Part shown: piece by piece, positions 11,503-63,236 of the stretch
How positions within the stretch are numbered: the first letter of the stretch is position 1
How the letters are laid out: each line of letters starts with the position of its first letter
NCBI GenBank assembly: GCA_964016885.1
Contig: CAXHJY010000401.1
Location: forward strand, 62,001 to 126,000
DNA length: 64,000 nucleotides
Source: Eledone cirrhosa
Taxonomy: Eukaryota
Direction: 5' to 3'
Position numbers and translations under genes: made by a program
Notes under the pieces: generated by a model
Seen by the model: the letters and a program-made list of their open reading frames with translations, nothing else
The model's database searches: none
What the model was told of the DNA's origin: nothing

Positions 11503-11564
11503 TATTCTATTATATATATTTCAAGGGTACCAAAAACTTTGGTACGCTATCATCAGATAAAATA
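11503..11564 (-). ncRNA. Type I hammerhead ribozyme motif, family R
   Basis: Minus strand: UAUUUUAU CUGAUGA [ag.guaccaaa/uuugguac.cu stem II] GAAA UAUAUA UA^ AUAGAAUA. 8-bp stem I; palindromic stem III AUAUAUAU. Confidence 0.8.
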
Positions 11565-11634
11565 CAAAATGTTTTATAAATATTTGACATAACCAAGGAT
11601 AATATACCTTAACGGTTCAAGTTATCCCTGGAAA

Positions 11635-11950
11635 GGGATATATAAATAGGGATATATATATATATAAGGGATATATATATATATGTAAGGGATATATATA
11701 TATATATATATATATATATATGTAAGGGAGATATATGTAAGGGAGATATATGTAAGGGAGATATATATATATATATATGTAAGGGATATATATATAAGGG
11801 AGATATATATATATGTAAGGGATATATATATAAGGGAGATATATATATATGTAAGGGAGATATATATATATATATATGTAAGGGATATATATGTAAGGGA
11901 TATATATATATATATGTAAGGGATATATATATAAGGGAGATATATATATA
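11635..11950. repeat. (TA)n-spaced TAAGGGA(G) tandem repeat
   Basis: Direct reading. Confidence 0.85.
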
Positions 11951-14900
11951 TAGTGAAAACTGGGACGAGAACAAAAACAGAGAGGCAGTACAAATATTTA
12001 TGTATATGCGGTCGGATCTAGCTGTCGAAACGGCCGGAACTTAGCCGTCGGGGTCCTGACTCTTTATATTTATTTAATTATGTCTCATATAAAATAATAC
12101 AACCAGCTATCCCCGAAATACTGATTAGTTAGCACCCCAAACACTAAATTGGGAGAATACTTAGGTATATCCTAATGTTTGTTGAGTGAGATGGAGTTGG
12201 TCGGAGTATAGCTTAAGGCTTTCTCTGTTAATCTATTAAATATATATATATATATATATATATATATATAATTCAATAATATATACACTCACCCATATGG
12301 ACATAGTCAGAAAGTTCTATATACTGTATATAATATCGTGAAAAGTTTTCAAACACGTTTTCCGTCCTCTGAAGACTGAAACACTGAGTTACGCTCACAC
12401 ACTTGTAAATATATCTATTTTTAACACCATCTATATGTGTATATATATATATATATATATATATATATATATATATATATATATATATATATACGTGTGT
12501 GCGTATATATATATATATATATATATATACATACATGTGTGTGTGTAAACGTATTTATATATAGAGAGAGATAGGTATATTGAAATTCGCACAGTACACG
12601 CTGATAAATAACCAACCCACCCTCTTACTACTCATTTGGTTACTAGCGTGTGTGTCTGTGTGTTGGTGTGTGTGTGTGTGTGTTGGTGAATGTGTGTGTG
12701 TGTCTGTGTTGGTGAATGTGTGTGTGTTGGTGTATCTGTGTGTGTGTGTGTCTGTGTGTTGGTGTATGTGTGTGTGCGTGTTGGTATGTGTTGATGTTAG
12801 TGTGTGTGTAAGTGTGTTTGTGTGTGTGTATTTGTATTGATATATATACATCTGTAAGCGTGTGTACATAGGTCCGTGTGTATGTGTGTGTGTGTGTGTC
12901 TGTATTTGTATTGATATATCCGTGTGTACTTAGGTTCGGGTATATGTGTGTGTGTCTGTGTGTTGGTGTAAGTGTGTGTGTGTGTGCTTCTATATAAAAT
13001 CGTGTGTAAGTGTGTGTGTTTGTGTGTGCTTCTATATAAAGATGTGTGTATGTGTGCATAAGTGCATGTCTGTGTGTATATATATATATATATGCGTCTG
13101 TGTGTATTTGTGTGTGTGTCTGTATATATATATGTATATTTATATATATATATGTGTGTCTGTGTATATATATCTATATATGTGTGTCTGTATATATATC
13201 TATATATGTGTGTCTGTGTATATATATCTATATATATGTGTCTGTGTATATATGTGTGTCTGTATATATATATATATATATATATATATATATATATATA
13301 TATATATATGTGTGTATCTGTGTGTGTATATATATATAGATATACATAAATATGTGTGTGTGTCTGTGTGTGTGTATATATACGTGTGTGTCTGTGTGTG
13401 TGTATATATACGTGTGTGTCTGTGTGTGTATATATATATATATGTATATATGTCTGTGTGTAGTTGTTTTTGCTGGTGTGTGCGGATGTATGTGTATAGA
13501 TGTATGTGTATACATGTATGTGTATATATGTTTGTATTTACACACGTGTGTTGTAGTTGTTGTTGTTGTTGTCAATGACGAACCAATTACATTTCACCCA
13601 TGACCGCCATATCATTTTCAGGCATTGTCTATCGAGGACTACACTATCAAATGCGCCCCCACCCTTTGTATTACGGGTGGGGTCGGAGTTAGGGTAGGTT
13701 TGGCTCCTATTGGGGGTTGTCATACTTGTGGGTTACGGGTAATGACCTCGTCAATAGCTCCCTTTGGTCATATTGGGCTGTGTGTGTGTATATGTGTGAG
13801 AGTGTGTGTGTGTATGTGTGAGTGTGTGTATAAGAGAGCTTGTGTGTGTGTGTATGTGTGAGTGTGTGTATAAGAGAGCTTGTGTGTGTGTGTATGTGTA
13901 TATGTGTGAGAGTGTGTGTATATGAGAGAGCCTGTGTGTGTGTTTGTGTATATGTTTGTGAGAGTGTGTGTATAAGAGTGCCTGTGTGTATGTGTATATG
14001 TATGAGTGGGTGTGTGTATGAGAGAGCCTGTGTGTGTTTATGTGTATGTTTGTGAGTGTGTTTGTGTGTGTGTATGAGTGTGTGTGTATGAGAGCCTGTG
14101 TGTGTGTTTGTGTATATGTTTGTGAAAGTGTGTTTATGTGTGAGTGTATGTGTGTGTGTGTGTATGAGAGCCTATGTGTACATGTGTGTGTGTGTGTGTG
14201 TGTGTGTGTGTCAACTTCGATCCAACGAATCCAGGAATAATAGTCACATTCACATACATACATACATACGTACAAATTATATACACACACACAGACATAT
14301 GTGTATATATATATATATATCCACACAAACATATATATATATATATATATACACACAAACAAACATATGTATATATAGATACACACACATATATTGAAAC
14401 GTACGTAAAAATTAAAGAATGGGTTTAAGTTAACCTTAATATTTCTTCATTTATATATATATATATTTATATATATATATATATATATATATATATATAT
14501 ATATATATATATAAGGATATATATATATAAGGATTAAAATACTGGAGCGTGTTGGAGTTAAACACCCTCTTCGTATTATAGAAATGACAGTAAAAGGTAT
14601 AGCTCAATGTAATTAAACAGAGCCGAAGAATTATATATATATATATGTATGTGTATATACATACATATATATTTATATGAGTGTGTGTGTGGTGTAAAAT
14701 CCCGATCGTGGCACCAATATATAATTTTGTGCGCGTGTAATTTATATGTGTAAAATTTATCAATATATATATATATATATATATATATATATATACACAC
14801 ACACACATTCACATACACACATATATATAGGTAAGTTATTCCGGGTTGAATCGGAGGTAACCACAGTAAGTAAGGTACTCAATACATTGCAGAGTATAAA

Positions 14901-14963
14901 AGTTTTAATATAGATAAGCTTCTACAGGACTAGAACTGTTTAATTCTTTAGAAATCATCAGGA

Positions 14964-15010
14964 ATCCCTGATGATATCTAAAGAATGAAACAGTTCTAGT
15001 CCTGTAGGAT
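14964..15010 (+). ncRNA. Type I hammerhead ribozyme motif, family Q
   Basis: AUCC CUGAUGA(14968-74) uauc-uaaa-gaau GAAA CAG-uucuaguc-CUG UA^ GGAU, predicted cut after 15006. The mirror copy on the minus strand (14916-14967) has GAAA changed to UAAA. Confidence 0.72.
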
Positions 15011-15074
15011 CTCATCTATATATATATATATATATATATATATATATATATATATATATATATATATATTTATT

Positions 15075-61152: not shown

Positions 61153-61416
61153 ATATATATATATATATATATGTATCTAGTCCTGTAGTATGTATTGAGT
61201 TCCTTACTGTGATTACATCCGACTGAACCCGTGATAAACATATATATGTGTGTGTGTGTGTGTACACATATATATATATAACTGTGTAAAAATTGTCTCC
61301 TGTGTCTAGTTCATTTTTCAACCTCCATATAAATTTATTTAAATTGTTGGGTTACAACGAGTAAATATTTATAACTGATATAAAAGCACTCAACAAGTAT
61401 TTGGAGTATATTTATT

Positions 61417-61763
61417 ATATTAAATAAATGGAAACTATATTTATAAAACCATATTTATTTCATTATATATATTTCAGGGATATCATATTAAAAATATGTT
61501 ATGCCTTCTTCAGACAAAATACAATATAAACAGTCTTATAAATAGATAGATTTGACATACCTTTCAACTTCAACTTCCATTTAAAAATCAACTTTTTAAA
61601 TGGAAGTTGAAGTTGAAAGGTATGTCAAATCTATCTATTTATAAGACTGTTTATATTGTATTTTGTCTGAAGAAGGCATAACATATTTTTAATATGATAT
61701 CCCTGAAATATATATAATGAAATAAATATGGTTTTATAAATATAGTTTCCATTTATTTAATAT
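61417..61763. repeat. Perfect inverted repeat, 171-bp arms, 5-nt loop (family R)
   Basis: 61417-61587 versus 61593-61763; no mismatch seen by eye. Confidence 0.95.
61659..61724 (+). ncRNA. Type I hammerhead motif, family R (identical mirror copy on - strand, 61456-61521)
   Basis: UAUUUUGU CUGAAGA agg.aua.cauauu-uuu-aauaug.uau.ccu GAAA UAUAUA UA^ AUGAAAUA; cut after 61716. Confidence 0.82.
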
Positions 61764-63012
61764 CGTATATATATATATATATATATACATATATATATAT
61801 GTATATCTTTATACATATATATATCTTTATATATATATATATTTCTGTGTTTCTCTCTTTCTCTCTTACTGCTCCCTCGTTCTCTCTGTTTCTCTTACTT
61901 TCTTTCGTCCCCTCTGCCATGTCAGTTAACCCTTTCTCTCTACTGACCTCTTCCTCGCACTCCCACTCACTCAGTCCCTGTTTCTCCCCTTCTTTCTTCC
62001 TCCCGTTCGCTGGGAAAACGGTTTTCATTCTTTCTAACACAGGATTCACTAGCGAAATGTCTGTTGCTGACTCGCTCATATATTCACACAGCTTATGCTG
62101 AAAGAATAACTATGTTGCTTGTGTTTATTTCCATCTTCGGTTAGCTTCCCCCTGTGTTGTTTACTTGTCTCACTCGCTTTACGCGTTTCTACTGTCCTAA
62201 TAACTTATTTTAGTTATTATCGCTCCAACGTGAGGTATATGATTTTTAATGCGATGAAATACCCATGATCGTTTGGTAAATCACTGATGAGGGACTCATT
62301 TTATAACATGTTATCCATGTGCAACCAGCAGTATTCTTCTCACCCATATTTTCATATATATATATATATATATATATATATATACACACATGTATGTATA
62401 TCTTTATACATATATATATCTTTATATATCTATAGATATATATAGATATATGTGTTTTGAGCTCTGCTGATGAACGATTCCAACCGTGACCATCCCTACT
62501 GAAAGTTTCGAGAAATAGTCTTTTTGTAGTTTTTCCAAATTGAAGGATCAGTATTTAGACTTTATTTTATTCTGAGTTAAGGCTCTATTGATTTTTCTCT
62601 GGATTTCACAAAATTCTACGGATAAATCTGTCTTGATTTTTTAAAATTGAGTTTGAATTATTTTCCCACATCTTACGTTAACTATTTTCCCATTTTGACG
62701 TTATAGTCACTTATATATTATGGTTTAATTAGGAATAAGTATAAATTAGTAATAAGTATTAGTTAGTATTCAGTTTTAGTTTTAAGTTTTTACCGGTTGC
62801 GCATTTCTTATGGTTTTCAAAAATAATTTTGAGATAGAGTGCTCGTGATTTTTGGTCTAATCTCTCTCTCTCTCTCTCTCTCTTTCTCTCTCTTTCTCTC
62901 TCTCTTTCTCTCTCTTTCTCTCTCTCTCTCTCATTCTCTTACTCTCTCTCTCTCTCTCTTACTCTCTCTCTCTCTCTCTTACTCTCTCTCTCTCTTTATA
63001 TATATATATATA

Positions 63013-63176
63013 TAGGAAAATAACCAGGACCCCGACGGCTGAGCTCCTGCCATTTCGACAGCTAGATCCGAACGCCGGGGTCCTGACCCGTTCCTATTAC
63101 CCACTCTACTACCCAAAGTATCGAGTACTCTGGTGCGTTATGGTCCACCTGGTTCCTTACCACACTTCCTTTGTTA
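63013..63176. mobile_element. Family S fold-back with deletion
   Basis: Inverted head ggaccccgacggctgagc...tttcgacagc followed by the plus-strand S tail. Confidence 0.78.
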
Positions 63177-63185
63177 TATATATAT

Positions 63186-63236
63186 AGTTTCAGAAGATCC
63201 CGTTAAGGGTGAAAGCAGCGATTCTTTGCTTAAACT
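63186..63236 (+). ncRNA. Decayed hammerhead motif, family U (core U4>A)
   Basis: AGUUU CAGAAGA uccc-guuaa-gggu GAAA GCA-gcgauucuu-UGC UU^ AAACU; all three stems pair. Confidence 0.55.

Follow-up and report, generated by a model that had tools for sequence, protein, structure and literature searches.

Hammerhead motifs in a 64-kb window of the Eledone cirrhosa genome as probable 3′ ends of Hydra-clade Penelope-like elements

What kind of element leaves a dozen or so hammerhead ribozyme motifs in 64 kb of DNA? The window, by which we mean the whole stretch of 64,000 nucleotides analyzed here (contig CAXHJY010000401.1 of Eledone cirrhosa, positions 62,001–126,000 of the forward strand), belongs to a 3.0-Gb assembly (GCA_964016885.1) and is dominated by microsatellites and satellites. 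An initial annotation, made from the letters of the window, attributed the motifs to short, non-autonomous ribozyme retroelements or retrozymes. We suggest instead, with a probability of about 0.88, that they are the hammerhead-bearing 3′ ends of autonomous Penelope-like elements (PLEs) of the Hydra clade, left behind as 5′-truncated stubs, and that they would represent at least five families plus a likely sixth. The retrozyme reading gave way because five of six families lead into open reading frames (ORFs) for a reverse transcriptase (RT) and endonuclease (EN), because the 5′ ends of the copies vary, and because none of 80 sampled loci has a neighboring copy on the same strand.

Hammerhead cores in the window

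We used a type I hammerhead descriptor that demands the ordered core CUGANGA, GAAA and UH, stems I–III closing the junction, and a stem II of at most 70 nt. It called nine motifs in the window, compared to a mean of 0.25 (maximum 3) under a loose filter and 0.02 (maximum 1) under a stricter filter (nine observed), both in 100 dinucleotide shuffles made in 200-nt blocks; the reversed window gave none. Chance matches in AT-rich, microsatellite-rich DNA can be dismissed on these counts and on the thousands of exact matches that family patterns find in the genome, against 0–1 for reversed-pattern controls, even though the bare CTGAnGA heptamer is not enriched (24 in the window, 18.7 ± 4.1 in shuffles) and the Rfam hammerhead models match nothing at gathering score, neither in the window nor in seven genomic loci. 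By E-value, no hammerhead stands among the best 150 of 431 Rfam matches in the window. Of the comparisons proposed with the initial annotation, the shuffled controls bear it out and the Rfam models do not; the ordered cores are confirmed at all eleven or so loci that it listed, and its six predicted cut positions (15006, 15812, 17139, 35813, 37308 and 61716) are correct.

Four listed loci lie outside the nine calls. The motif at 37189 (named, like the others, by its C3 position) was missed due to a stem II of about 110 nt, above the 70-nt limit; its stem I has 7 bp, and it carries a CGAUCG palindrome. At 55068 and 18928 (minus strand), stem I is broken in the window copy, and 63191 was called only once a CAGAAGA core was allowed.

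All-against-all blastn sorts the listed loci into five families, A to E. The initial annotation, which had counted four to six, was right that there are several; its loci are not unrelated singletons, and it missed a sixth family, F, of which the window holds 12 fragments, all devoid of the 5′ core half. Altogether about 33 fragments of family A–F element ends lie in the window, a count from which short family D matches inside microsatellites were discarded as noise. The features are as follows, with cuts as predicted.

11503–11564, minus: family C hammerhead whose stem III is the palindrome UAUAUA, part of element fragment 11463–11638; C3 11556, cut after 11511
14964–15010, plus: family B hammerhead, C3 14968, cut after 15006; forms the right arm of a head-to-head pair, with a stem III of 4 bp and a short, U·U-closed stem II that lacks one pair here
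14826–14966, minus: family B mirror arm of the preceding, GAAA changed to UAAA; the tail is on this arm
15747–15820, plus: family A hammerhead with an inverted arm at 15617–15734 that bears the tail; C3 15755, cut after 15812
17073–17150, plus: family A hammerhead, second subfamily, C3 17084, cut after 17139, stem I of 11 bp
18182–18249, plus: family A hammerhead of the third subfamily, with an inverted tail at 18095–18177; C3 18188, cut after 18243
18882–18931, minus: family B hammerhead, decayed, C3 18928, first stem I pair broken; decayed mirror arm at 18932–19065
32892–32940, minus: family B hammerhead, its mirror arm at 32952–33048 truncated but with a tail; C3 32936, cut after 32898
35764–35818, plus: family C hammerhead, C3 35769, cut after 35813
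37182–37498, plus: family D end, with hammerhead at 37182–37315 (C3 37189, cut after 37308) and a tail of at least 140 nt
37033–37183: family D truncated mirror arm
55059–55133, plus: family A hammerhead of a fourth subfamily, here with a damaged stem I; C3 55068, cut after 55126
61659–61724, plus: family C hammerhead, C3 61667, cut after 61716
61456–61521, minus: family C mirror of 61667, head-to-head, C3 61513, cut after 61464
63186–63236, plus: family E hammerhead-like motif with CAGAAGA core, C3 63191, cut after 63231
15083–15259, plus: family F, longest window copy, truncated within the 5′ core half; retains stem II, GAAA, stem III, GUC and tail
3566–3701, 11394–11430, 12019–12055, 15895–16049, 31629–31803, 36480–36648, 37534–37647, 39498–39538, 55213–55344, 60977–61152, 63022–63171: other family F fragments
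2023–2304: core-less family A fragment
17442–17561, 33159–33205, 36876–36997, 60901–60940, 61190–61237: core-less family B fragments
36246–36281: core-less family D tail fragment
30790–30840, 31515–31611: core-less family E fragments

Weaker motifs at 12369, 42473, 48984, 59434, 62284 and 62467 and, on the minus strand, at 48189, 55536, 52665, 46793 and 5009 fail the descriptor. The weak CUGA...GAAA arrangements at 48120–48200 (minus strand) and 62460–62510 may be decayed members of other families. An Rfam match to "Plastid-psbJ-2" at 15977–16150 is spurious, as the region is a family F palindrome plus (TA)n.

Continuity with Hydra-type reading frames

Walking upstream along longer genomic copies, we found that those of families B–F continue for 0.7–2.4 kb and then enter an ORF of Hydra type, which terminates in a GIY-YIG nuclease; further upstream, RT motifs are present in B, D, E and F. 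In family D, the GIY-YIG end lies about 0.75 kb upstream of the hammerhead (loci L117, L119 and L381), with RT and EN present as pieces. For family E the ORF ends about 0.95 kb upstream; about half of 22 listed loci show the nuclease end at 0.9–1.2 kb, and L363, L365 and L372 hold RT-EN frames of 400–670 aa. Family F carries RT and EN motifs in a single frame about 1 kb upstream (L373, L374 and many more loci). In family C, overlapping copies bridge the hammerhead to a nuclease end about 1.1 kb upstream (L292, L302), the coding part reached comprising EN and the upstream linker. In L385, family B has an open frame of 772 aa, and the end of this ORF recurs 2.4 kb from the hammerhead in either arm of that locus and again in L389; the structure predicted for the L385 protein (predicted local distance difference test score 89.5) finds its best fold match in telomerase RT (E 3.4e-9). 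The 2.4-kb family B 3′ untranslated region (UTR; L385:5320–7743) holds an internal microsatellite tract of about 1.6 kb that travels with the element. The initial annotation had proposed a search for PLE frames with RT and GIY-YIG domains beside longer copies; they are present for B, D, E and F, in C as the nuclease end, and family A is unlinked.

The Hydra-type proteins of families B–F are 36–51% identical to one another, so that the families called unrelated are so in their non-coding ends and homologous in their ORFs. They share 21–22% identity over about 300 residues with a second PLE type of this genome, and public assemblies gave 105 homologues. DKT is found in B, E and F, RWR in B and E, and CxCX5C, CxLC and CxH in B–F; the proteins also carry a YRDD motif. 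The Hydra clade has been defined by DKT, an RWK-like N-terminal motif, a CxCX5C linker, CxxC and CxH around conserved E and N residues, and no CCHH (PMC8557442); the RWK of that description reads RWR here. As a practical matter, Hydra-type ORFs escape the Pfam model RVT_1.

An attempt to link the families through 50 GIY-YIG loci yielded only nested neighbors, because PF01541 mainly picks another PLE type; upstream walking succeeded instead. In L363, family E hammerheads flank the ORF on both sides, with other sequence between. L410 (G000:C2:121366100–121372500) has a short EGF-like coding exon apparently between PLE fragments, suggesting intronic insertions. A non-Hydra PLE family bears a compact hammerhead (CUGAAGA, U·U, a 3-bp stem II, a GAAA loop and a GUAC palindrome), located 379–407 nt past the stop codon in five long-ORF arms (L175, L179, L180, L183 and L191). 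With its CX5CxxC linker, this family would be Neptune-like.

Genome-wide, a first look gave more than 1,200 candidates for each of families A–E. Exact patterns matched 31,101 times for B, 27,728 times for E and at least 2,097 times for A, and a family F pattern matched 5,791 times. Many copies are 95–99% identical, which supports recent amplification; here the initial annotation judged well, as it did in calling the motifs type I hammerheads of several families associated with PLEs. GIY-YIG candidates numbered 10,597 in a first look, with open frames of up to 1,096 aa, and on this candidate count the genome would carry a very large PLE load. PLE expansion in octopus has been reported, in a main text that mentions neither hammerheads nor Hydra (PMC13282606). 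A by-catch of 474 loci (1.74 Mb) contains roughly 25 distinct hammerhead signatures, some with a stem II of 50–110 nt, and includes three further U3-A8 families (stem III CUACGUAG, CCGG and CAGAGCUCUG).

Anatomy of the inserted copies

Copies vary in length at the 5′ end, continuously up to the ORF, and are often arranged head-to-head and flanked by (TA)n tracts. Among 80 pattern-sampled loci of families E, F and G, none has a same-strand neighbor copy within 1.5 kb, and 14 have an opposite-strand neighbor. Moreover, 63 of 79 head-to-head pairs bear a tail on exactly one arm, and (TA)3 directly follows 198 of 246 tail-less 3′ ends of families A, B, D, E and F, a raw rate in a genome that is itself TA-rich. 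Within the window, no head-to-tail hammerhead repeats occur among 150 of 244 tandem repeats. Inverted truncated copies and a one-sided tail have been described for PLEs (PMC8557442), and internal initiation of reverse transcription at two sites accounts for the tail pattern (PMC11167929).

These features also bear on whether the motifs could replicate as short units, as non-autonomous non-LTR (long terminal repeat) retrozymes or as PLE-dependent mini-elements resembling short interspersed elements, perhaps in the form of head-to-head palindromes. Most copies are indeed shorter than 250 nt, family A has no link to an ORF, and family B palindromes are centered just 5′ of the core in 40 of the 40 best matches (to a query selected for them), with many such pairs in the B pattern search. 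However, non-LTR retrozymes are defined as tandem repeats, at odds with the lack of same-strand neighbors at the 80 sampled loci. The 5′ ends form a continuum that extends as far as the ORF, and one would not expect a short, re-mobilized unit to retain its tail on a single arm. We therefore consider replication as short units quite improbable.

We next asked where copies begin relative to the predicted cut, using 101 tail-bearing by-catch copies and leaving out loci fetched for the same family. A cut template should yield copies that begin at the cut. Only two begin within 2 nt of the cut, while 71 span it; therefore the templates appear to have been uncut or religated. Cleavage thus looks conserved over the long run, yet not needed for each insertion. 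A pile-up of 5′ ends at the core start (12 of 27 in family B) supports no claim, as subfamilies differ from the reference copies there.

Under the preferred reading, that of truncated PLE ends, the element protein would nick AT-rich DNA, by analogy with published PLE biochemistry, and reverse transcription would begin inside the element RNA at either of two sites downstream of the hammerhead, giving an optional tail; early stops and template switches would produce short and inverted copies. In the master element, a hammerhead with a short palindromic stem III (A, C and D) is predicted to work as a dimer, and one with 4–5 stem III pairs (B and F) possibly as a monomer. A working ribozyme would trim tandem precursor transcripts, most inserted copies would stem from uncut or religated RNA, and family E would have amplified despite a ribozyme that is likely weak or dead.

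Several points weigh against this interpretation. The hammerhead is mostly not the minimum-energy structure of single window copies, and minimum-energy folding gave z below −2 for 4 of 14 sequences. The tails, at about 60–140 nt, exceed the published 30–40 bp. Hydra-type ORFs have no Pfam RT match, three of the proteins have no Pfam match of any kind, and none has a sequence match among solved structures. PLE coding sequence is absent from the window and from 10 kb on either side, so every window copy is a non-coding stub. Family A stayed untied to any ORF after two walks and 20 longer stretches (Hydra ORFs lie near its copies in L410, L412, L414 and L400, none continuous with it), and its standing as a likely sixth PLE family is argued from its tail, inversion and (TA)n signatures. 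Covariation in the family A stems (score 0.232, reached by 1 of 500 shuffles; 83% of cells paired versus 34–49% when slid; changes on both sides in 6 of 18 pairs) is supportive only, as it was calculated on related sequences and an author-drawn structure, with one subfamily off register by one base. Finally, the Hydra-clade assignment was made from motifs rather than from an RT tree with published Hydra sequences.

Ribozyme constraint, altered cores and known systems

Are the hammerheads working ribozymes, or is their fold kept for another purpose? In most families (A–D and F) the pattern of base changes favors, on balance, a working ribozyme. A tally by hand of the first 100 of the 5,791 family F matches gave G50/A21/T15/C14 at N7, A at position 8 in all 100, U at position 3 in 90 and C in 10, and U at position 4 in 99; by this tally the core is the known U3-A8 variant, with its compensatory pair. 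Reading it as an N7 deletion was dropped, since position 7 is free and position 8 fixed. In contigs of a second data set, which may be the source sample or a relative, U3 is likewise the major form of family F and N7 is variable. Three other motif families also covary to U-A at the 3-8 pair, with UH kept at the cut, and across the 31,101 family B matches the 3-bp UUC/GAA stem II is preserved while its 4-nt loop varies freely. In families C and D, the short stem III is a perfect palindrome, pairing between two molecules. U4 and C3-G8 are canonical in A–D, but not in E (A4) or F (U3-A8, with C3·A8 in 10 of 100). A C·C mismatch recurs 2–4 positions up stem II in A, C and D (for example at window positions 35776–35801) and may be a tertiary or protein contact.

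The initial annotation had cautioned that replacement of the G10.1-C11.1 pair leaves activity in doubt. The pair is indeed replaced in families A–E, and present in F; the caution is weaker than claimed, as U·U is usual in the published Hydra clade and reported in active ribozymes. In File S2, ctgatgat...tgaa is the reading of most Hydra rows, which places U·U at the foot of stem II (PMC8557442), and a U·U hammerhead from axolotl, HHR_Amex2, cleaves (PMC7229834).

The likeliest alternative is that the fold persists as a signal for protein binding or reverse transcription, with no motif cleaving in vivo. In its favor, a family with A4 grew to about 28,000 copies, sub-lineages with C3·A8 (in F) and with a broken stem II (in E) multiplied, and copies do not begin at the cut; in the lizard PLE, ribozyme mutants left insertion in vitro unaffected and no RNA-seq reads end at the site (PMC11167929), a precedent with which copies from uncut or religated templates are in line. 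However, constraint tracks catalysis beyond shape, with N7 free, the 3-8 pair covarying and UH kept, and the lizard ribozyme does cleave, provided that its protein is present (PMC11167929). We regard a purely signaling role as unlikely, if clearly less so than replication as short units.

Family E is the unusual case. The initial annotation took the motif at 63186 for a mutated copy, but CAGAAGA is what the family as a whole carries: of 27,878 matches that include the native 5′ flank, 27,728 have A4 and 150 have U4. True U4 copies, at 0.5%, are at the level expected from later mutation; of CTGAAGA versions, 5 among the first 100 matches, the three inspected are inversion junctions. The fold is otherwise complete, with a long bulge in stem I, U·U plus three C-G pairs in stem II, a 5-bp stem III and a CUU site. 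N7 and the loop hardly vary in family E, in contrast to B and F, so that the family offers no internal sign of selection. A sub-lineage that lost two of the three stem II pairs has 227 exact copies with linked diagnostic changes, and the C3·A8 sub-lineage of F, about a tenth of that family, is young, with copies 99% identical. We think it likely that the U4A ribozyme of family E is weak or dead. Our literature search found no paper on a U4A hammerhead, cases of which may stand in Lunse et al. 2017 or in the supplements of Cervera 2014 and Perreault 2011; no word of the Craig supplement begins with "cagaaga" (PMC8557442).

A further family outside the window fixes U4C (CCGAAGA), with C4 in 99 of the first 100 of 4,492 matches. 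Its palindromic stem III switches between CAAUUG, CAGCUG and CAGUUG; covariation is uninformative, with one pair changed on both sides and 85 of 500 shuffles scoring as high. At L515–L534 (for example L526:1493–1560) this family has a one-sided tail resembling that of family A and no ORF link within 1.5 kb. A search for "U4C" hammerheads found them in one paper, and the variant has been reported from a viroid (PMC3088659). It is possible, but doubtful, that the cores of family E (A4, about 28,000 copies) and of the C4 family (about 4,500 copies, so far with no ORF assigned) are natural variants with activity, putatively switched on by the RT-endonuclease of the element itself. If so, A4, C4 and the C3·A8 and broken-stem-II sub-lineages would form, in one genome, a graded natural series bearing on the purpose of PLE ribozymes. 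Either the core of the U4A family works, and is then a new one, or the family is the largest radiation known for a PLE ribozyme that is dead.

Hammerheads are nearly universal in PLEs, yet they were dispensable for insertion in the sole in vitro system. The genome studied here shows both aspects on a large scale. The catalytic pattern is under constraint when families are compared, whereas inside single families, masters whose core or stem is damaged have given rise to between hundreds and tens of thousands of copies. Apart from the U4A family, this is an ordinary, if very dense, PLE landscape.

Two further kinds of feature lie in the window. A GC-rich satellite of 46 nt, with a 35-nt variant, occupies 22210–25607 (about 76 copies, 91% matches) and has no relation to them. 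Short open frames at 42547–42819 and 48487–48939 and, on the minus strand, at 39573–39947, 47466–47738, 54204–54572, 59088–59393 and 32151–32642 are presumably decayed ends of retrotransposons of the long interspersed element type and a piece of a PIF1-like helicase.

The arrangement of a PLE with a hammerhead is itself already published, with an octopus member: among the C-terminal EN+ PLEs of Craig et al. 2021, File S1 has one octopus family of the Hydra clade, Hydra-1_Obim (PMC8557442). Like that clade, the elements described here have a single RT-GIY-YIG ORF with DKT, CxCX5C, CxxC and CxH, (TA)n targets, a hammerhead close to the 3′ end, whose stem II of 3–4 bp frequently has U·U at its base, and inverted truncated copies with a one-sided tail. 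They differ in comprising at least five families whose ends no longer align, in the stem II of about 110 nt in D, in 3′ UTRs of 0.7–2.4 kb, one with a microsatellite tract, in tails of about 60–140 nt, and in cores with A4 or U3-A8, where rows 5–36 of File S2 are all CUGA (PMC8557442).

With the minimal hammerheads of PLE pseudo-LTRs (Cervera and de la Pena 2014, PMC4209133) they have in common that a genome holds thousands of motifs, most of them solo and spread over many consensus families; further shared traits are a palindromic stem III, pairs on opposite strands, the U3-A8 variant and a low expected activity. The G10.1-C11.1 pair, highly conserved there, is absent from A–E; B, E and F have a stem III of 4–5 bp, and copy numbers are higher (31,101 for B and 27,728 for E). 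Type I hammerheads in high copy are also a trait of metazoan non-LTR retrozymes (Cervera and de la Pena 2020, PMC7229834), which are head-to-tail tandem repeats of 150–450 nt, each with a hammerhead (PMC7229834; bioRxiv 10.64898/2026.07.22.740005), and have been proposed to derive from PLE pseudo-LTRs (PMC7229834). Unlike these, the families here form no head-to-tail arrays, have no fixed monomer and, in B–F, are directly continuous with coding elements. Finally, among natural core variants, U3-A8, U10.1·U11.1 and the viroid U4C have been described as active (Perreault et al. 2011, PMC3088659); U4A, which the passages on core variants in that paper do not name, is here fixed in a whole retrotransposon family.

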